Source: Elsinoe ampelina (lineage: Eukaryota). From it: a DNA stretch of 64,000 bases. Shown here one piece after another: positions 8,394 to 53,605 of the stretch. The stretch is from positions 799,127 to 863,126 of the forward strand of contig ML992510.1 of NCBI GenBank assembly GCA_010093995.1. The letters are read 5' to 3'. The position numbers and the translations under genes were made by a program. Numbering within the stretch: position 1 is the stretch's first letter; each line of letters opens with the position of its first letter. The notes beneath the pieces were generated by a model. The model saw only the letters and a list, made by a program, of their open reading frames with translations, searched no databases and was not told where the DNA came from.

Positions 8394-8617
8394 TGGAATG
8401 CTCTCGATGATTCCGTGACACGACTGCTGTAGAGCAGAATGCTAAATATGCCCTGGTGAGCGTGTCGATTGGTCATTGATGGTATCGAAGGGGTGTTGGA
8501 AAGGTCAAGCTTTCGCCCCCGACCCTCGGGCAGCGACGAATTTGACCGAAACAGGCAAAAGATGGGGACCTGGGAGATGGTATGGGGTTCAATCTGGTTA
8601 AACTCGGGCAAACACCT

Positions 8618-11600
8618 TATTCTCTGTTGCAAAAGGGCTAGGATTTTCTTGGCAAATTTGCTTTTAAACGTCAGCTTAAACGACTAACTTCAACCTAATA
8701 GCTAATAACTCACTAATCAATTAAAAATTAAAGCTAAAAAAAGGTGTAATAGTAAAGTTAGTACTTCTAGATTAAGTAATAAAATAATTAACCAATTCGC
8801 AGCTAAATTGCTAGTGTTAGTGTCGCTATTACAATGCCTTAAATATACCTTATTCTATTGCCCTATTACATTAACTATATCTATAAGCTCTTTCTCTCTA
8901 GTATAAGTACTAATAATATTACTAACCTTACTAAAGGCCTCTTAAAGTTAAGATCTTATTACTTAAGGGCTAATTAGCTTACCTTTAGCTATATTAAGCA
9001 TCCGAAGGCATTAAAGAAGAGAGGGTAGCTACTACTATTACTACTCGAGGTGTTACTAGATATATAAAGACTATTTAAGAAGGAGTTAGATATATACTTA
9101 GAGGAGCTATAGAATTATTTAGAGTCTTATTAGTCGATTTCTGTATTAATTAGTACTATCTCTAGAGAGCTAAAAAAGTCAAATTACATATATAAGGTAT
9201 TAAGTTATACTACTAGCTAGAGAGATAAGGTACTCTATACTAAGTATTATAAAGAGATAAAGGCGTTTACTACTAACTAGCTCGTGTGTATAGATAAGAC
9301 TATAGTTAATAAGAAGACTCTATAGCGCTACTTTAGTTAGTTACTAAAGAGGTTACTAGCTATAGATCGCTTAGTAAGAAAGACAAGTAAGCGCTAGTTA
9401 GTACTTCTAGCGCTTACTATTAATAGATATCTCTATAGCGTAAAGGTGTTTTAAGGCTTAATTATAGCTACAATATTCGAGTGCTAGCTTTAAGAGGAGG
9501 TACTACTATAGTACTTACCTTATCTAGGCCTATAGTTAGTATTAGTATTAGATAATTATTAAATTCACTAGAGGAAGATATATAAAGAGTTTACTATCGC
9601 TACTATTAGCTACTTAGCTAATTACGTTAGGTAATAATTGACCTCTATTAATAGTATAGTATTTTAGTACGATTTTTACCTAGCTATTTACCGGATTATA
9701 ATCTAATTAAGCCTAGCTTCTATATATTAAAGTAGTATATACGGCGTAATAGAAAGGAGGTACCGTAGCTTAATATAGAGAGATACTAGCGTTAGTTTAA
9801 GGTGTTTATCTACGAGTCCTATAAGGACTTTTAGAGTAGTATTAACTTTAAAGCACTATTTAAAAACTGCAGATATAGGCTTAAATAAAGTCACCTATCT
9901 ATCGCTATTAATCTGCTATAATTATATACTATACTTAGGTTACTTCTCCTTATCGAATAATATTATACTAGGTATCTACTAAATAAAGAGGCTAAGGTAC
10001 TACTTTACCTTTACTCTAATACTATATAGAGGAATTATTCTCTCTAGCATCTTATTACTTAATTGCAAAAGCAATTTAAGGTCCTAGTAATCTATAATAA
10101 GCCGCTAAGTAGCGTTATAAAGAGGCACCTTAAAGTAAGAGTAGCGCTATATAAGGGAGTTAAAAAAGCAAGTAATATATTAAGAGTCTTTAGCCTTAAG
10201 AGGAAGCGAGCTTAACTAGAGAATTTTGTAATTACTATCGCTTATTATTAGTATAGAGAGAGGTTAAAGGGTAGTTAAAAGAGCTAAAGGTAACTCTAGA
10301 CAAGGTACTAGAGGCTAGCTACTATTATAGAAGTACTAGTTAAAGATAGAGGTTAAAGAAGGCCTATAGAGAGAAGGATTTAATTTGCCTTATTACCTCT
10401 TATATTACTTATACTTAGCTAACTACCTATCCTTACGAGCCTTAGTAGCGGCAGTAATAAAATTAATAATATAGACTAATAGCCTACTAGTAGTAGACTA
10501 GCCTATAGTAGTATTATATTGCTATTCGTTAATAATATTAGTATCGATAGTATAGTAAGTGCTACTAATAATAATATATACTACCTTATCTATATTCGAG
10601 CACTAGCTAGTTTTACACTAGTAAAACTCCTTAATATTATACTAAAATTACTTACGGAATGCCTTCTTAGCTTACGTATTTAATACTAATAGTCCTCGAG
10701 GTATATTGTAGTCTAGTTATTATAGTATAGCTTAAGAGAGGTAAGTAGTAGTACCTCGGATAGTATAGGGATTAGTAGTATTAGCTAGTACTAAGATTTC
10801 TCCCTTAGTAGAGATATTCTACTCTAAGGAGAATCTCCCTTATTAATTATTAACGTGTAATTGTAGCTCCTTCTTCTTTAAACTATAGTAGTGCCTTAGA
10901 AGGTTAATAACCTTATACTATAGTAATCCTAGCACCTTAAAGTTGTCTATAGAGTTAATAGAGTTACCCTTAGTAGAGGTAGTAAAGATCTTAGCCTTCT
11001 AAGAGAGGGAGTAGCATTATAGGCCTTATATATAAGTAAATAGATAGATAGTAGTAGCTGCCTTATTATAGATACTACTAATACTACTATTAATGTTATA
11101 AAGCTTATTAAATCGCTTAAGCTCCTTACTATCGAATTAAACTATCTAAACTCAGACGAACTAGACGTTTAGAGGAGGTATTAGTAATTACTAAGTCTAA
11201 GAGTTAGTAGAAGAACTTAGCGATTTTTGTTAATAGTAATAGCAAGGTAGTTTTAACTTAGATTAACTCTACTATCTCTCTAATACTTAAGATATACTTT
11301 ATAATGCTTCTCTACTAGTTGTCTTATTATCTAGTTACTCTTATATAGCTATTACTAAGTTAGAAGGGGAGGGGAGTATCGGTTAAGAGATATACCTTCT
11401 TAGTACTAATATTATAGTACTCTAGTAAGTAACTCTTTAACTTTTTTAGATAGGCTATTTAGCTTATAGTTTAATCTCTTTAACTTCTTTAACTTTACCT
11501 TCTTCTTCCTTAATAACTATAGGTCGACTTTAGCGCTTCTACTTTCTCTAAATACTTCTCCTAGCTAGAGCTTCTAAATTAAGGTTCTTTAGAGGCTTAC

Positions 11601-12136
11601 TAGCGTTTATATATACTATTCTTCTTATAGGCGCTTCTCTATTACTATCTCTATTAGCTTATAAAGTTTAAAGGCTAGTAAACTTAACGTAGTATAAGGA
11701 TTAAGCCTAGGCCGACTAAGGGGGAGAGTTAATAATCTTATAGAAGCCTTCTAATACTAGCATTTCTAAGAGCTCTAATAGGTTACTAAAATAAGATAGG
11801 TATCTAGTATTTAATCTATCTTCTTTAACTAGCTCTTTATTACGCTCGATAGACTAAGGGGGAGTAGTTATAAGGAGGGGGGAGCTCGGTAGTACATTAA
11901 AGGTGCTAGGGTTAAAGTCCTCTATCTCGGTAATTATCTAGTTAATTTATATATAAGTTAGATTAACTAGATTAAAAGACATGTAATTGCACTTGGCAGT
12001 GCTATTACACCTTTTTTTAGCTTCAAAAACGACGAATTAGGTAAGTTATAGTAAGATAGGTAAGAAGTGGTCAATTTGGTGGTGGTTTACACGCTGATTT
12101 GCTAAGAAAATCCCAGCCCTTTTGCAACAGAGAATA
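8618..12136 (+). mobile_element. RIP-inactivated Tc1/IS630-type (DD34E) DNA transposon with TA target duplication and ~135-bp imperfect TIRs
   Basis: Ends TATTCTCTGTTGCAAAAGGGCT(A/G)GGATTTTCTT(G/A)GCAAAT are inverted at 8618-8657 and 12097-12136; a perfect inner 22-bp IR lies at 8731-8752 and 12002-12023; de-RIPed + strand gives QLVCIDET (D 9293), PYPGPRSVLVLDNCQIH (D 9551), FLPSYSPDYNPIE (E 9709). Confidence 0.92.
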
Positions 12137-20494: not shown

Positions 20495-20965
20495 ATGCTT
20501 GGGACGGCAGGTGGTGATCACAGTCGCATACAAGTGTGGTCGTCGGTCACGTGACATGCTGAGCTTTGGCCAACCTGCCTGGCGTCGGTCAACAACGTGG
20601 CAGTTCTCTTCTTCCCTTTACAATGCACGTCAAGCTTCAGTCACTATTGCCCACACCCAGACACTTCAGTTCTGGTAGGACTGGAGTACAATTACTACCA
20701 GAACTCAGCATTTGAGCACGAATTACAGGCTCTGAGACTTGCCAGTAAAATCCGGTAGTATTCGCAGTCACATCCTATTCGATGCTGGACCAGTTCGACA
20801 ATTGTTGCCTTTTCAAGGCGTGACCGACAACATGGGAGCCTCGATATCCTTATTGATAGTCACAGAGCACCACAGCCGGACCGAACACCGCGCAAAACTT
20901 GTCATGCATTTGCGGACATCAGAGGACATACTCGCCACCCGACAAGACAGGTCCCCTGTCCACTT

Positions 20966-38521: not shown

Positions 38522-39800
38522 ATGGCTGGTGACTCGGATCCAGAGAGAGAAAAGGCCCTCGATGACTACAAGAACAAGCTACTGGAGTCAAGAGAATGGG
38601 AGGCAAAGCTCAAGTCATTGCGATTAGAGATCAAGGGGTTGCAGAAGGACTTTGATGTGTCGGAGGATAATATCAAGGCTCTGCAAAGTGTCGGGCAGAT
38701 TGTGGGAGAAGTTCTGAAGATGTTGAGTGAAGAGAAGTGTACTTGATAGAAATCTGGTTGATGGAAACATCCGGCTGACATATCTCAGTCATTGTCAAAG
38801 CATCATCAGGACCCAGATACGTTGTCGGGTGTCGGTCGCGAGTGGACAAGAGCAAACTGAAGCAAGGCACACGGGTTGCGCTGGATATGACCACACTCAC
38901 AATCATGCGGACATTACCGCGAGAGGTCGACCCGCTCGTCTACAACATGTCGCTAGAAGATCCTGGACAAGTCAGCTTCGCAGGTATTGGTGGTCTCAAC
39001 GAGCAGATCAGAGAACTGCGAGAGGTCATTGAGCTACCACTCAAGAACCCGGAGCTTTTCATGCGTGTCGGAATTAAGCCGCCAAAGGGAGTCCTCCTGT
39101 ACGGTCCACCAGGAACAGGAAAGACACTCCTGGCCAGAGCCGTGGCCAGCAGTCTGGAGACCAACTTCTTGAAGGGTAGGCAAGATCTGTATTACGCCCG
39201 CAGCTGGACTGACGTGTAACAGTGGTGTCCTCCGCGATCGTGGACAAGTACATAGGCGAATCGGCGCGACTCATTCGAGAGATGTTCGGATACGCGAAAG
39301 AGCACGAACCCTGTATTATCTTCATGGACGAAATCGACGCCATCGGTGGCAGGAGGTTCTCAGAGGGCACATCAGCAGATCGAGAGATTCAAAGAACCTT
39401 GATGGAACTGCTAAATCAGCTCGACGGTTTCGACTACCTAGGCAAGACGAAGATTATCATGGCGACCAACAGACCAGACACACTTGACCCTGCACTTCTC
39501 CGCGCTGGACGTCTCGACCGCAAGATCGAGATCCCTCTTCCGAACGAGGTCGGCCGGCTCGAGATTCTCAAGATTCACTCGGCAGGTGTACAGAAGGAGG
39601 GCGATATCGACTTCGAGAGCGTGGTGAAGATGAGCGATCAACTCAACGGTGCTGACTTGAGGAATGTGGTGACGGAGGCTGGACTTTTCGCGATCAAGGA
39701 CTACAGGGATGCTATCAACCAGGACGACTTCAACAAAGCTGTTCGTAAAGTAGCTGAGAGCAAGAAGTTGGAGGGCAAGCTTGAATATACCCGTTTGTAG
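38522..39800 (+). CDS. RPT4: 26S proteasome AAA-ATPase subunit Rpt4; introns 38739-38788, 39176-39222
   Basis: [14 protein letters not shown] N-terminus, [29 protein letters not shown]-terminal KLEGKLEY. Confidence 0.97.
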
Positions 39801-39936
39801 CTATGCTAAGGTAGAGCTGCTAACAAAAGCGACGACGTAGCTTGCCAATCAGCAATGCAGAATTAATGATACTTCCATGTCTTTGACAGTGCCTCCGCTG
39901 TGCCTCCTTGAACCATAACAACATGCTTGATCCCTG

Positions 39937-40070
39937 TTTCGACGCTGCCGAAATCCCATGAATAGCCACCCCAATAGTATGCTTACTTCCTTTCGACGCT
40001 GCTGAAATCGACCAGAAGCCATCCTAGCAATATACTCCGTATTTTGACGCCGCCGAAACCGACCAGTAGC
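39937..40070. repeat. Three ~52-bp degenerate tandem units, each with a TTTCG-N7-CGAAA imperfect palindrome
   Basis: TTTCGACGCTGCCGAAA 39937, TTTCGACGCTGCTGAAA 39991, TTTTGACGCCGCCGAAA 40042. Confidence 0.9.
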
Positions 40071-40118
40071 CATGCCGGCTCAAATGGAGAGCCTCCATTG
40101 ACAGTCCAACGTGGACGA

Positions 40119-43100
40119 TTACTGCTTGCGCGCACGCTTCGCCGGTGGTGCTTTTGCCATCACCTCATCGTCGCCATCCTCCCCGTCATCGTCCTCGTCC
40201 GAGTCCGAGTCCTCCACCTCTGCCTTCTTTGCCTTCCTCTTCCTTGCACCTTCCTCCCTCTTCGTGAGTGGTACCTGTAGCTCGGCATGCTGCACGGACA
40301 TGTCGTGCTCCTTCACCAGGTGTTTGCGGAGTTGTGATGCGGAGGTGAAGACATCGTCCTGCTGGCAAGTCCCCAGAGGACACTGCTGCCGAAATTTGGC
40401 ACGTGTGGTTTTCTTGCGGACAACGAACGATTCGATCTCCTTTGGAGTCTTCAGATGAGGTGGAGCCCTAAGATGGGCTTTGAAGTGCTTCTTGGTCGTG
40501 AACTCCTTCTCATTGCCACATATGTCGGAAAAGGGGCACTTCATCGGATTCGGAAGATCATCATGCTCCTCTCGTAGGTGTTTCTGCAAGAGATTGTATG
40601 TCTCGAAGAGGACTTCCGGCTGATCGTCACAACGTGGACAAGGTCTAGGGACGTACTCATGCGTGGTCGAGATGTGTGCCTTGAGCGTTTCCTCTTTGAT
40701 GTATGACTTCTTGCAATTCTCGTATGGGCATGCGTGCTTCTCCTTGGTGGCAGTTGACTTGTCCTTGGTGCAGGCAACCTCATGCGTCTGAACGACATGA
40801 TGCCAGCGGTTTGTGTACTCGCATTTGCTGCAACGGTATAGATAGGGGGTCGGCGCATCTCTGCTGTTGCCAGTGGGAATATACTGCGCGACGACTGCCG
40901 CATTGGACGAGTCGAAGGAGCGCTTGAGCCTGTATACATTGATACCGGCAAAAACCGCAACAAAATCATTGCCGTTGAGCTCGGATGGCTTCACGTCCTT
41001 CGATCGATTCTGTGCGCCGGTCTGAGGTTCATTGAGGTCATCGGTCAGCACATGTACGATGGCTTCATCATCGATATCGTCGCTGTCGCTGTCGCCGGCG
41101 TCGTTGTCAGTCTTGAGCTGCTCATCAAGTACGGCATTGCCTGTTTGGTCGATGAGATCGCGGATCCAGTCGAGCTGCTCTTCGTCTACGTCAAGGGTTT
41201 CAATATCGTCCAACAGCAACAGTGGATCAATATTGCTCTCGTCCATGGCCGATTCTGGCGGCACCGAAAACGAGCTGTGTTGGTTCTCCACGTGGGTTGT
41301 GTTGATACGCGGAGCCATGCTCATAAATGTACTTTTCGACGGTGCTGGAACCGTGACTTGAGTGCTTATATGAGTCTCAGGTCCATCGACAGTGCTGAAA
41401 TTGGCGTGATGCTGGGTTTGTTTTGGCGGCATCGAAATTGACTTGGATGTGGTGCGAGGCTGATTGACAGGTTTAGCAACAGTGCTGGTATGGAGATCCT
41501 CCATGGCCTTCTTCGGCAGTGCTGCATTGACTGGTTTATTCACCTCGCTCGCAGTTTTGGTGCGAAGCGCTTGTGCGGGACGAGGACGAGAAATCAGCGC
41601 ATCTTGCTGCTCGAGTCTCCAAGCTGACTCGGCCGCTTTCTTGAGCTGCTTTCCGGCCTTGGTCCTCTGCAGATTGTCCTCCTTGTTCATCTTCTGCTTG
41701 TCCATGTATTCGTCAATGTCAGATTGCGTGAACTTCGGCGCATTGAAAGGAGTGTCGGCAAATTTGGGAGCTAGACGATTTTCGAAGGGATCCACAGCTC
41801 GCATGTTCCAGATGGGCGCCTGCAGATGACCAATGTAATCCTGGTTGGTGCCTTTGTCCAGAGCCTTTGTGGTATGGTTGGCGACCAAAGCGGTGCAGCG
41901 ATCTGATACGCCTTTGATAGACTTGCTCAAGTAGGCCACATCACGCAGTGCACCGTTCCGGATGAAACGAGTATTGACGGGGACCAGGATACCAGCGGCG
42001 AGAGACATGTCTTGAAGTGCATTGCGGATTTGGCTCTGGTGTGCAGGCTTGTCGTACGACAGTGTCGAAATACCACGAGCCATCTGGCATAGCACCGGGG
42101 TCTTCGGAGCAGACCATTGTACTTCTCCGTCACGGCGGGCGGCAGCCTCTGCAAGGACTGCATCGAGAGAGGTGTGTTTGACGCGGCCAAATCTGAGCGC
42201 TACAACCAGGAGTAACTTGACCACGCAGACGACATTCTGAGATGGGTCGCTCATCGGATCAATGAAGACGACTACCGATTCATTATTGGCAGATCTGAAG
42301 AGCAGGTCAGCACAAATCCATGCTCCAATATCAGTCAATACCAACTTGTGGCCTTTGGTGAATTCCAAGGTGACTTTGAGGCTGAGGTCATCGACACTGC
42401 CGGTTCGCTTGTTATCCTTGAACGTCAGGGAGAGGTGTTCCCAGCAAAGACATTCCATGCCTGTGTAGAGCGAGGACCTGGCAATATCGCCGGACCTGCA
42501 TGCACAGCTAGCTTGGAGCACAACGCCGAGAAGCTTGAGCAGGACACGATCCCAAGAGAGACAGCCTTCCGCAAGGGCTCTATCGATCCAGACTTCGGAG
42601 ATGCGGTGTATGACTTTGTATCCCAGCCACTGCCTCTTGAACCACGTCCCACGTACGAGGACCTTCTGAGTGACAAGTTGGTCGAGATGCATGCCGATGC
42701 GATTCACCCAGTACGTAGTGTAGTTGGTGGGCAGATCTTCGTGGCGGAACTTCAATAGGTCAATTAGGCGGCGCCAAATTCCACGGATGACTGAGAGCGA
42801 AGGCTGAGTCTTGCCTTTGAGACCTGGTCGAGTGTGGCGGGCTCTGACGTCGATGAAGCGAAAGATCTGCTCTCCGCTAGGGCATTGCTTGATACTGTAG
42901 CACATCAGTACTGTCGAAATGGGGCAAATGAAGGTCCTCCATTGACAAGGTCCTCCATTGACACAACGTGGTAGGAAGTCGAAGCAAGTACTACCAGCTT
43001 TGACACCTTTGATGGAGCCTGCTTGACTGAGCTCTGCCACCTCTGGTAGGATCACGACTCGAGACCTACCAGAGCTAGCTGAGCTCAGGCAGAAGGCTTG

Positions 43101-43450
43101 GTCCAAGGTGTCAAAGCTGGTAGGTACTTTTGGGTGATACTACCAGAAGTGCCAGAGCTGGTAGTTTCTTGGAGATTGATACTACCAAAAGGGACGACTT
43201 ACTCGTGCTTAATTGTCTGGCAAAAGGTATCCCACACTGCCATTACGCTCTGTTGAGCCTCGCGAGTCTTGGGAGCGCCACGGGCGAAGGTGAGCTGCCT
43301 TGCATTCTTCTTGCTGAGAGGTCGATCGGTCGCCTGATTGAGTAGGATAGCCTCCGAGACACGTTTGCCGACGTTCGGATTGGGTTTGAATATGCTCTTG
43401 TCGTGTTCGTCTGGTAGGTCTTCGAAATCGGACGAATTCAGGTCGTCCAT
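40119..43450 (-). CDS. Tyrosine recombinase-like protein with five C-terminal zinc fingers, ~990 aa; introns 42895-43202 and 42295-42345
   Basis: Exons of 248+549+2176 nt splice in frame; candidate catalytic order R (ACRSGDI), K (FTKGHK), RxxR (TRFIRNG), H (VANH), Y (QDYIG); one C2HC and four C2H2 fingers; acidic/basic tail. Confidence 0.8.
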
Positions 43451-43461
43451 CGTGATGGATT

Positions 43462-43632
43462 GTCCTACCAGAGCAGCAGGGCACTGGTAGGATGATTGGA
43501 AAGGTCCTACCAGGGCAGCAGGGCACTGGTAGGATGATTGGAAAGGTCCTACCAGGGCAGCAGGGCACTAGTAGGACGATTGGAAAGATTGTACTGATGG
43601 GCTGGTAGGATGATTGGAAAGGTCCTACCAGG
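43462..43632. repeat. 42-bp tandem repeat (3 full copies plus a partial one) built from alternating TCCTACCAG/CTGGTAGGA half-sites
   Basis: GTCCTACCAG(A/G)GCAGCAGGGCACTGGTAGGATGATTGGAAAG at 43462, 43504, 43546. Confidence 0.95.
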
Positions 43633-44531
43633 ATTGTGTTTGCATTATGGCAAAAAGGAAGGTCGAATTCGTTGAGCTGGTAGGATTAGAGCAAGAGTCC
43701 TACCAGGGAAGGACTTGGAAAGAGCGGTATCAGGCACGCGCTGGTGGTGCCTGGTCTTGGCGCGCGCGCCCTCTCAAAGGTACCTACCTACTGGGAGCTT
43801 CGACACTGCTGAAGACCAACACGTCACTGGTAACAGGATATCTGTTGTCTGTTTAATTATTGGCACATCGTAGTTTTCACAGAAGCGACATTGCATGGTA
43901 AATGACAGCGTCGACGGAATACTGGCAATTCACAAGGCCCATGTCACATTTCTGCGTTGTTCGAATGAGGGAGACAAGGAGTTGCGGCAATGTCGAAGGA
44001 ATCACTTTTCAGAAGGTCTGGGGTCAGATTCCCATTTATGTATTTTGGCGCGACCAAAAAACCGTGGAACGCGTGGGTTGCGATCAGACTAGTCTTTCAT
44101 TGGTCAATCGAAGTCTCTCCACTCCAGTAAATGTCACGTGATTTGACTTGGCTTGGGCACGGCAACGAGTCCATATGTCGCCACATAGTTTCTCATAGTT
44201 CAAAATGTCTAGCTTGAGTACCAAAAGCTTTAGGTCACGGCGACGACGGCGAGGATCTGTACTATAACACAGCTGCATCAGCGCGGCGCAGGAAGGACAA
44301 TAGGCTGAGATGGCCCGGCATGAATGAAAGCTGTTCTCTGGGCATTTGACGCACGATCTCCATAACCACGAGACGCCTGCATGCCACCAGAATACTCTGG
44401 AACCGTAATATCTCGACCCTCTCGTGTCGCTGGTAGGAATGGGGGCAATGGTACTACCAGAGCCACATCGCAGCATGGAGAGTACCATTATCAAGCAGAA
44501 ATACCAAGCACCCATCAACCCATATCGGACG

Positions 44532-45579
44532 TCAAACTCCATCAACAGGGTGGCTCTCCCCTCCTTCAGCCTCTTCTCGATACACATACTCCACCTCCCT
44601 CCCCCCCTCCCCATCCCCCATCCACTCCACATTCCTCCTCATCTCCACCTCCCCAAAGAAATTCACCTCCCCTACCTTCCTAAATCCCACCCCTTCGAAA
44701 AGCGCGATACTGCCCGTATTCTCCCGCCCAATCTTCACCCTAAGATACGCGAGCTCCACCTCCCTCTGCCCTGCCTCCCCCCTCACGTCGCGTCCGTCCA
44801 GCCCATTCCCGTTCGTCTCGCCCCGACCCTGATCCTGCCCCTGCCCCTGCCCCTCCGCCCTCGAAAGTCCAGCGGCGTACTCTGCGAGGATCTCATCGAG
44901 ATGTCCCTTGATGTATGCGATAAACGCCTGCAACGCCGCGCGGCCGTACCCGCTCCTCCGCGCCGAGGGGACGGCGATCATGATCTCGATTTCGCCGACG
45001 AGGTACTGTGGTGGGTTCGAGGCGGAAGGGAGGGAGGGTTCGGCGGATTCGGAGTCGTCGGGCGTGAGGAAGAGGTTGATGTCGCCTAGCATTCGCGGGG
45101 GGGAGTCGTGGTGGGCGGGGATGATAGGGGGATGGGTAGGGGGTTGGGAGGGGGATGGGTGGGGGGCAGCAGGAGAAGAGGAGAAAGGGGACAATGAGGA
45201 AGGGGCCAGGCAGATGATGAAGGTGAGTTTGTCGTGGTCGTGCCGCCAGGAGGATTGCATGGTGTATTCTTCTGGGAGGGAGAGGGGTTCGGAGGCTGTG
45301 AGGGCGAGGAGTGACTGGGGGTTAGCTTTTGTGTAGGTATTGACGGACAATATCAGGTAGAGTACTGAAGAGCATGGATATGGAGATAGGAATAGTGAAA
45401 GGTATGGAAGAGTTGTACCTACTTCATCCGTCATCCATTCGTGATAAGTTGGGACATGGTGTTTCTCGTATGGTACCAAGAGAACATTTTCCGTGACAAT
45501 CGCTAAAGTGCGATGTCAGTCGGTCTAGATCGCATTTGCACGTGCACGACATTTTACCTGTATGCTCATTGATCCTCAT
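44532..45579 (-). CDS. NAT9: GNAT N-acetyltransferase 9-like; introns ~45504-45557 and ~45315-45422
   Basis: MRINEHT, LVPYEKHHVPTYHEWM, LTASEPLSLPEEYTMQSSWRHDHDKLTFII, GDINLF, GEIEIMIA. Confidence 0.9.
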
Positions 45580-52799: not shown

Positions 52800-53605
52800 A
52801 CAATCTCACTATACATTATACATTCACCACCATCGTCACACTCCCCATCCTTTCCCTCTCCACCANNNNNNNNNNAAGAATACTGCACCACCTCCTGCCC
52901 CTGCTCCCAATCCTGCGGCGCCCCCCTCATCCCCCTCCACCTATGCACAACCACACACGCATACACGAACGTCGCAAACGTAAACCCCCTGTCGATCGTC
53001 AGCCTCATCTCTCCCCCCTCCCCTTCCTCTCCGTCCACGCCTTCTGCAAAAGGAACTACTCACACAAGCAAAACCGCCGGTATCGCCGCCAACGCGAAAC
53101 CCCCCGCCCACACCATGACAATGACAGCCAACACAAAGTAAAACGCCCAGACGATCAGCTTGGCGATGTTGGACACGAGGTAGAAGACTGGGTTCAGCTT
53201 GCCTTTGGCGTAGAGGAGGGCTTCTACGCCGTCGAGGAGGAGGGTGCCGAGCGTGAAGCCGGCTATGAGGGCGAAGCTGCGGCTGGGGACGGGGTTAGGG
53301 TGGTACTGCCGATGGGGGAGGGAGGGGGGAGGGAGGGGGGAGGAGGGGAGGAGACGAGGGGGGAGCACGGGAGGTGTGACTCGCGAGGGGGACAGACGGG
53401 TGTGGAAGCAGAGGGTGAGGACAAGAGGCACTTACCCAAGCGCACCCCGGACGTCATCGTAGTCGCTGTCCGAGTAGATCCAGTTGTTCAGGACTACATA
53501 GTCTTTGACTCCAAGCGCGAAGAGGATGACGCAGATGATTAGTCTGGGCACCCAGGTCCAGATGAGCGTGGAGCGGGTGTAGAGGTCTTTGGTGTTGGAG
53601 AGCAT
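52800..53605 (-). CDS. Four-TM (MARVEL-like) membrane protein, paralog A; 3' end obscured by the assembly gap
   Basis: WTWVPRLIICVILF, SFALIAGFTLGTLLLDGVE, LNPVFYLVSNIAK; two introns. Confidence 0.65.
52866..52875. other. Assembly gap (10 N)
   Basis: Run of N in the sequence. Confidence 1.

Follow-up and report, generated by a model that had tools for sequence, protein, structure and literature searches.

Current descriptions sort the tyrosine-recombinase elements of fungi into Cryptons (with a GCR1_C domain), DIRS and Ngaro elements (with a reverse transcriptase, RT), and Starships (with cargo). In the accessible text of Kojima and Jurka (2011), CryptonF elements combine a recombinase with GCR1_C and have 6-bp terminal repeats, and the genes domesticated from Cryptons are described as having lost most of the catalytic tetrad. 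Starships consist of a DUF3435 captain plus cargo (Gluck-Thaler and Vogan 2024; Vogan et al. 2021); their captains are published as relatives of Cryptons, and one of them, Kirc of the Starship Enterprise, is made up of a recombinase, a central zinc finger and a chromodomain (Vogan et al. 2021). We analyzed a 64,000-nt window (the whole stretch of DNA under study, from which all positions below are counted) of the grapevine-anthracnose fungus Elsinoe ampelina (GCA_010093995.1, contig ML992510.1, 799,127-863,126), and found on its minus strand a gene for a protein, P0001, in which a predicted Cre-like tyrosine recombinase is followed by five C2H2-type zinc fingers. Our verdict is that P0001 belongs to a real, unnamed lineage of tyrosine recombinase-zinc finger proteins near the Cryptons and the Starship captains. 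The locus itself is, we tentatively suggest, most likely a single-gene, cargo-less integrative element of ~3.8 kb.

The list of open reading frames (ORFs) in the window contains a 1006-codon open frame at 40119-43139 on the minus strand and, upstream of it on the same strand, an exon frame at 43199-43567. The coding sequence of the recombinase-finger gene joins 43450-43203, 42894-42346 and 42294-40119 on the minus strand and specifies 990 amino acids; its scripted translation matched the deposited P0001 letter for letter (NCBI, hypothetical protein BDZ85DRAFT_320676, Elsinoe ampelina). The gene is built as follows.

43203-43450, minus strand: exon 1, with the ATG at 43450-43448, encoding residues 1-82 plus 2 nt; defined by splice signals and the match to P0001.
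42895-43202, minus strand: intron 1, 308 nt, GTAAGT..CAG; based on splice signals and the deposited model, no RNA joint having been seen.
42346-42894, minus strand: exon 2, with the codons for the box I Arg216 (42497-42495) and Lys263 (42356-42354).
42295-42345, minus strand: intron 2, 51 nt, in frame, GTTGGT..CAG; RNA joint.
40119-42294, minus strand: exon 3 including the stop codon, with the codons for Arg375 (41969-41967), Arg378 (41960-41958), His406 (41876-41874) and Tyr419 (41837-41835).

At 308 nt, intron 1 is unusually long for a fungal intron. The N-terminal block encoded by exon 1 is kept in the alignment of relatives P0002, P0009 and P0011. We compared four public sequencing runs with the window, judging their RNA-like nature from spliced joints; the pieces of runs X3, X4 and X5 on the gene and its flanking genes were letter-identical to the window, and run X12 aligned solely to the conserved ATPase gene next to it, with less than 95% likeness. 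A contig of run X3, which comes from an independent study of the same organism, joins 42294 to 42346 and so skips the 51 nt of intron 2 (CT..AC on the plus strand, GT..AG on the minus strand; depth 5.5, side 102). X3 contigs covered 40999-42813 piecewise at a depth of 4-8, indicating low-level expression; positions 43734-44227 and most of intron 1 lay without RNA cover and were not used as evidence. We concluded that the locus encodes one expressed protein. A further X3 contig (record 7, 39222-40998) carries spliced ATPase mRNA that continues into the opposite-strand 3' third of the recombinase gene; because it spans both genes, either the convergent transcripts overlap or the assembly merged them.

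Five motifs follow one another in P0001 in the canonical order of tyrosine recombinases, CRSGD at residue 215, TKGHK at 262, RFIRNG at 375, VANHT at 403 and QDYIG at 417. Pfam returned for P0001 sub-threshold C2H2 matches alone (zf-C2H2, 22.5 bits, under the cut-off of 25.2), and the family sequence profile, when compared with the Protein Data Bank (PDB), matched zinc-finger proteins exclusively (TFIIIA, E = 2.4e-8) and no recombinase, so that a fold search was needed. We built an AlphaFold2 model on 116 family sequences, which reached a mean predicted local distance difference test score (pLDDT) of 80.2 and a predicted template modeling score of 0.71, with residues ~30-510 and 700-960 mostly above 90. 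In a Foldseek search of the PDB with this model, Cre came first (3crx_A, E = 5.5e-5, template modeling [TM] score by target 0.63), and the C-terminal part matched the fingers of TFIIIA and CTCF. The top VIA alignment was likewise with Cre (5crx_B; Z = 14.4, root mean square deviation 3.4 Å over 275 residues, model residues 46-396), and XerH (Z = 11.9), the integron integrase (10.9), lambda Int (9.9), Ndc10 (9.3-9.7), Tn1549 Int (9.6), Flp (8.8) and the poxvirus topoisomerase (7.7) were also matched; the 50 VIA matches listed were recombinases, proteins with a recombinase fold (Ndc10 and phage repressors) and one type IB topoisomerase. In the ESM Atlas, residues 84-470 fell beside DUF3435 clusters (feature score 0.95; TM 0.72), with NDC10_II (0.95) and phage-integrase clusters likewise nearby. 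The model thus predicts, securely, that the N-terminal half of P0001 has the two-domain fold of a Cre-like tyrosine recombinase, and the protein as a whole consists of this recombinase (residues ~46-440), a disordered linker, a conserved module and five C2H2 fingers, encoded as follows.

41772-43315, minus strand: core-binding and catalytic domains of a tyrosine recombinase, residues ~46-440, spanning both introns; from the AlphaFold2 model and the match to Cre.
41004-41537, minus strand: low-confidence linker, residues ~519-696, with pLDDT below 50 at 519-622, 624-634 and 649-696; poorly aligned among relatives.
40833-40994, minus strand: conserved pre-finger module, residues ~700-753 (...INVYRLKR...GNSRD.P...), pLDDT ~79-96, matching no Pfam family.
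40305-40832, minus strand: five C2H2-type zinc fingers, residues 754-929.

In the alignment of relatives (A1), I717, N718, R724, G741, N742, S743, R744 and P747 of the pre-finger module are invariant. The finger motifs (C-x-C...H-x-H) occupy residues 754-774, 788-811, 818-843, 852-879 and 904-929, at a pLDDT of ~90. An earlier, sequence-only reading of the window had described a spliced gene of about 990 amino acids with recombinase-like residues in canonical order and five zinc fingers, and these proposals were borne out by the exact length, by the RNA joint at intron 2, by the motif positions and finger matches given above, and by the Cre-like fold found with Foldseek and VIA.

We assigned the catalytic residues by motif order and spacing rather than by structural superposition and counted the corresponding columns in 117 sequences, each 300 or more amino acids long, aligned with MAFFT, with the following result.

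Arg216: kept in 92 of 94 sequences.
Lys263: kept in 92 of 93 sequences.
His-II, position 375: His in 90 of 113 sequences, Arg in 12, P0001 among them.
Arg378: kept in 108 of 113 sequences.
His406: kept in 113 of 113 sequences.
Tyr419: kept in 112 of 112 sequences.

P0001 itself has five of the six catalytic positions (R216, K263, R378, H406 and Y419). Judged by these columns, catalytic conservation in the family is secure; on the reading of the locus as a mobile element, the P0001 copy, with Arg at His-II, would still be active. The locus had also been called intact by the sequence-only reading, a description to be qualified, since the His of the HxxR box is Arg.

An exhaustive phmmer search of 1.84 billion representatives (50% clustering), with the recombinase part as the query, returned 920 relatives at E ≤ 1e-3, 501 at E ≤ 1e-10 and 94 at E ≤ 1e-30. 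Full-length relatives are mostly 800-1100 amino acids long, with the recombinase at ~85-460 and three to seven C2H2-like motifs; where the sources name family members, it is as "C2H2-type domain-containing protein" or hypothetical protein and nothing else. Members occur in Dothideomycetes (Zymoseptoria, Recurvomyces, Saxophila, Zasmidium and Diplodia), Sordariomycetes (Diaporthe, Apiospora and Neoarthrinium), Eurotiomycetes (Exophiala, Rhinocladiella and Fonsecaea) and Leotiomycetes (Botrytis, Cudoniella and Pseudogymnoascus); in a FastTree phylogeny of 85 sequences, an Apiospora (Sordariomycete) sequence was nested among Dothideomycete ones. As a control for database coverage we used the GNAT acetyltransferase encoded next to the gene, for which orthologues were found in E. 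batatas (72%), E. fawcettii (54%), E. australis (52%) and Myriangium duriaei (41%). No homologue of P0001 is annotated in those three Elsinoe species or in Myriangium, as judged by near and shorter-protein searches of the protein database, and an unannotated or pseudogenised copy is possible.

When 50 relatives were compared with Pfam, nine passed the cut-off of DUF3435 (PF11917; 25.8 bits) and 23 matched it at E ≤ 0.01, the matches spanning profile positions ~25-235 of 418; Phage_integrase was matched weakly in four. P0001 gave no match to DUF3435 at E ≤ 10. GCR1_C was absent from P0001 and seven close relatives (E ≤ 10) and from the 50 relatives (E ≤ 0.01), RT and chromo domains were absent from the 50 relatives, and no RT or RNase H family was found in the P0001 gene or in 55 scanned ORFs of the window (of 89 with at least 140 amino acids). 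We concluded that these proteins make up a large family of the Pezizomycotina, as yet unnamed, on the border of Pfam DUF3435, and the results supported a distant relationship of P0001 to this domain of the Starship captains. A recombinase-C2H2 family was not found described in the open-access full-text literature, a coverage that leaves out Repbase, subscription journals and supplements, and the locus tags MYCGRDRAFT_94447 and Bcin06g01570 are absent from open-access full-text papers.

A metagenome scan with alignment A1 gave 277 pattern matches and no relative; one with relative P0288 gave two loci, whose lengths of 3205 and 1134 bases left no usable flanks. In the longer of these (L001:1250-3205), the exon layout is alike, with a short acidic first exon and then the recombinase; its box I reads RADD in place of RxGD, and there is a frame change near 2900-2950.

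Both ends of the gene carry repeats, as listed here with the palindromes and the candidate ends.

43462-43587, no strand: 42-nt tandem array, 3.0 copies, in the 5' leader, immediately before the ATG (Tandem Repeats Finder score 231, 96% matches).
39937-40070, plus strand: three units of 51-54 nt downstream of the stop codon.
42968-43706, no strand: seven 30-bp palindromes CTGGTAG-N16-CTACCAG, starting at 42968, 43043, 43117, 43484, 43526, 43602 and 43677.
40081-40103, no strand: imperfect palindrome lying 16 nt beyond the stop codon, whose last base is 40119, and resembling two 16-nt units of intron 1 at 42931-42962.
43799-43813, plus strand: upstream copy of a 15-bp direct repeat, TTCGACACTGCTGAA, with one mismatch; candidate att-like end.
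39938-39952 (one mismatch) and 39992-40006 (exact reference copy), plus strand: copies of the 15-mer within the 3' units.
5623, 7493, 7895, 12256, 28236 and 44430, and also at the 20672 palindrome: CTGGTAGGA 9-mers outside the 5' region of the gene.

The 15-mer TTCGACGCTGCTGAA has four matches with at most two mismatches in the window, against 0.16 expected, and all of them lie on the plus strand within 39.9-43.8 kb. The copies at 39992 and 43799 agree at 14 of 15 positions, bracket the gene and delimit a candidate 3.8-kb unit; the RNA contigs that cover the ATPase gene stop at 39881 (X4) and 39947 (X5), short of the copy at 39992. No long terminal repeats were found at the locus. The 3' units were also considered as palindromic core sites, a candidate that we dropped because their arms are just 4 nt.

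The 30-bp palindromes have conserved arms and variable centers and lie in the 5' leader and in intron 1, which holds three of them. The window contains eight in all, against 0.01 expected, the eighth being intergenic at 20672-20701, 22 kb from the gene. In the same window there are 17 of the CTGGTAGGA 9-mers, against 0.29 expected, seven of them outside the 5' region of the gene; the scattered palindrome and 9-mers could mark where a small hairpin element ends, or they could be a binding site that is dispersed. Intron 1 also contains a nested, near-perfect palindrome of 133 nt (42991-43123), centered on one of the 30-bp sites, which might be a miniature inverted-repeat insertion. Predicted RNA folds of intron 1 (-139.9 kcal/mol, z = -10.7) and of the 5' leader (z = -8.27) were far better than those of shuffled sequences because of the 30-bp palindromic sites. 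RNA cover in the bin 43487-43733 had a depth of 0.76 in run X3.

The gene lies in a gene-dense core region with genes for enolase, a proteasomal AAA ATPase, the GNAT protein, 3β-HSD, HMG-CoA reductase and DAP3. On one side, the ATPase gene (AAA, 5.9e-29; Prot_ATP_ID_OB_C, 8.3e-12) is reached 318 bp beyond the stop codon and is followed by enolase; on the other, the gene for the GNAT acetyltransferase, called N-acetyltransferase 9-like in the sources, lies ~1.1 kb upstream of the recombinase gene. The GNAT gene (44535-45515, minus strand) is open from stop to stop across an apparent in-frame intron, with 275 amino acids annotated against 327 open codons. Among the 55 scanned ORFs of the window, no chromodomain or other further family reached E ≤ 1e-5. 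Scanning the locus with Rfam and for tRNAs returned nothing, so that neither a 5S nor a tRNA target lies close by. A run of ten Ns occupies 52866-52875.

The indices of repeat-induced point mutation (RIP) for the gene (TpA/ApT 0.49; [CpA+TpG]/[ApC+GpT] 1.33) are similar to those of its neighbors. An AT-rich block at ~8500-12000 (G+C content 0.31, TpA/ApT 2.0-2.1 and [CpA+TpG]/[ApC+GpT] 0.17-0.20, as measured over 9001-12000) looks like a RIP-mutated repeat. We looked for compositional foreignness of the gene and rejected it, as G+C content and its value at third codon positions (GC3) match the neighbors.

What the sequence-only reading had said of the setting was mostly upheld: the gene does stand between housekeeping genes, with repeat arrays at both ends and free of RIP damage in a window that has a RIP-like block, and Pfam recognized neither RT nor GCR1_C in the gene and its relatives and no cargo in the 55 window ORFs. 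Its suggestion that the element may be recent was not supported, given the matching GC3 and the distance to the nearest relative. The suggestion of a minimal Starship relative survives as distant DUF3435 kinship, seen in the nine relatives that pass the model, and not as a DUF3435 match in P0001. That the family might be undescribed is in keeping with the open-access literature; the published account of Kirc provides a precedent for the joining of a recombinase to a zinc finger.

We read the recombinase gene as a mobile element because of its kinship with DUF3435 captains, its scattered distribution, the compactness of the one-gene unit, the repeat that flanks it, and the logic that links a single copy to freedom from RIP. 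In addition, the catalytic columns are kept in the family, in contrast to the published domesticated Crypton-derived genes. We infer that the recombinase, guided by its fingers, would excise the unit as a circle and that the circle would re-insert through conservative site-specific recombination, the crossover falling within a short shared core, with TTCGACRCTGCTGAA as the putative crossover or junction sequence and the two copies of the 15-bp direct repeat (39992-40006 and 43799-43813) as candidates. Because such excision and integration would be conservative, cut-and-paste movement would keep the element single-copy and hence spare it from RIP. Three further observations count for mobility. 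A divergent Z. tritici paralogue, P0014 (ST99CH_1A5), is on record in one of five annotated strains and has Gln at the Arg-II position, making it a candidate for a polymorphic, decaying copy; many family matches are short fragments; and P0063, an identical 981-amino-acid family protein, is found on 13 Logan contigs, the longest of 3743 bases, a pattern that would be expected of a repeat at whose ends assemblies break off, or simply of shallow assemblies.

Several observations weigh against an integrative element. The closest named relative of P0001, the Z. tritici orthologue, is present in five of five annotated strains on contigs of 2.65-2.82 Mb, and a single 90% cluster holds the proteins of both Fonsecaea nubica and F. 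monophora; these orthologues look like resident genes. Several near-identical family copies were not seen in any genome, and the nearest relative of P0001 is merely 48-56% identical, which does not support recent movement. The GC3 of the gene (0.62-0.67) lies inside the neighbors' range of 0.54-0.70, so that it gives no sign of foreign origin. The direct repeat is just modestly unlikely by chance, since 14 of 15 matches were reached by 5 of 407 same-geometry segment pairs elsewhere in the window (about 1 in 80, in one orientation), and one of its partners lies within a tandem array; the palindrome cluster was not seen at L001, the sole relative locus available. Finally, the His of the HxxR box is replaced by Arg375 in P0001, and in the FastTree phylogeny a residue other than His occupies this position in 8 of the 13 sequences of the clade around P0001 against 5 of 70 elsewhere, which may mean relaxed or altered catalysis in that clade.

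The main rival, which we regard as a distinct possibility, is that the gene is a resident, domesticated host gene encoding a recombinase-derived, sequence-specific DNA-binding protein that serves the cell, whether in transcription or chromatin or by programmed site-specific recombination. One such gene is annotated, in a gene-dense core region; it has host-like composition and GC3 without a RIP signature, and is spliced and expressed at a low level; the Z. tritici orthologue in five strains, the Fonsecaea orthologues common to two species and the His-II replacements in 8 of 13 members of the surrounding clade all fit such a gene. So do the seven fixed-spacing, variable-center palindromes of its 5' region and the eighth, 22 kb off, since a domesticated protein may bind the sites in its leader and intron for autoregulation, and Ndc10, Gcr1 and the DUF3504 genes provide published precedents (Kojima and Jurka 2011). 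What tells against domestication is that P0001 retains Arg, Lys, Arg, His and the nucleophilic Tyr, all near-invariant in the family, whereas the published domesticated Crypton derivatives lost most of theirs. Nor would a domesticated gene readily account for the lack of an annotated homologue in three congeners and Myriangium, whose proteomes are in the database, for several divergent lineages per genome together with many short fragments, or for the strain-specific paralogue P0014.

Two further explanations seem improbable to us. The gene might be a solo Starship-type captain, the remnant of, or precursor to, a cargo-carrying Starship of which the rest is gone. Its fold is closest to a DUF3435 cluster (TM 0.72), nine of 50 relatives pass the DUF3435 cut-off, and in the published description of the Enterprise captain Kirc a recombinase, a central zinc finger and a chromodomain are combined. 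P0001, however, has no DUF3435 match at E ≤ 10, the scanned window ORFs contain no chromodomain or further family, and long terminal repeats are lacking at the locus. The 3' side, where cargo would be expected, reaches the essential proteasome ATPase gene after 318 bp and then enolase, and it is because essential core genes abut the gene there that a solo captain is less likely. An equally small chance attaches to a catalytically dead relic, an old insertion with a defunct recombinase whose frame stays open by chance or for DNA binding alone. The change of His-II to Arg, the apparently single copy and the absence of any sign of recent movement at the locus would be in keeping with a relic; a 990-codon frame that is open and correctly spliced, with five of six catalytic positions intact, would not. 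The His-II position is known to tolerate substitution in Cre mutagenesis and in type IB topoisomerases, which also speaks against a dead enzyme.

Whether mobile or domesticated, the family comprises at least 920 sequence clusters that combine a Cre-like recombinase of conserved catalytic residues with C2H2 fingers, and it stands outside the described fungal groups as these are defined. If it is mobile, it would show how a DNA transposon can survive RIP by staying single-copy, and it might stand near the state from which Starship captains arose; if it is domesticated, it would be a rare case of a host gene in a eukaryote with the recombinase active site still complete. In both cases, the family offers a compact protein-plus-site system that is directly testable. 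Beyond the integrative element favored for this locus, one can imagine that filamentous ascomycetes harbor an unrecognized major lineage of single-gene "zinc-finger Crypton-like" elements, maintained as single RIP-proof copies through conservative movement, with the C2H2 array choosing the target and with the 15-bp repeat and the 30-bp palindromes serving as recombination and accessory binding sites, a generalization that we think doubtful.

Among known systems, CryptonF elements such as Crypton-Cn1, as described in the accessible text of Kojima and Jurka (2011), resemble this locus in being a single intron-bearing gene of ~4 kb that encodes a recombinase and then a C-terminal DNA-binding module, in lacking RT and long terminal repeats, in their patchy distribution and in having short direct end repeats, proposed there as recombination substrates and represented here by the 15-bp candidate. 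The locus differs from them, by comparison with their description and not with CryptonF sequence, in that its C-terminal module consists of five C2H2 fingers instead of GCR1_C, its candidate repeat is 15 bp instead of 6 bp, and multiple copies are not known. With the Starship captains Kirc of Enterprise and HhpA of Hephaestus it shares Cre-like core-binding and catalytic domains and structural kinship to DUF3435, and with Kirc also a zinc finger; unlike Starships, it has no cargo, large element or chromodomain, core genes abut it on both sides, and P0001 fails the DUF3435 model. Like the domesticated Crypton-derived genes (yeast Ndc10/Cbf2 and Gcr1; animal DUF3504 genes ZMYM2-4 and QRICH1), it is an apparently single-copy, host-like gene in which a recombinase fold is joined to other DNA-binding or zinc-finger modules, and unlike them, as they are published, it keeps Arg, Lys, Arg, His and Tyr. 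Cre of phage P1 (5crx and 3crx) is the best structural match over both domains, at an identity of merely 11-14%, and has neither fingers nor linker. The RT and RNase H that accompany the recombinase in DIRS and Ngaro elements were not found in the gene or in the 55 scanned window ORFs. We therefore do not rate the family as a new category: having neither cargo nor chromodomain, it shares its type of recombinase with the known groups and is set apart from them by its DNA-binding module.

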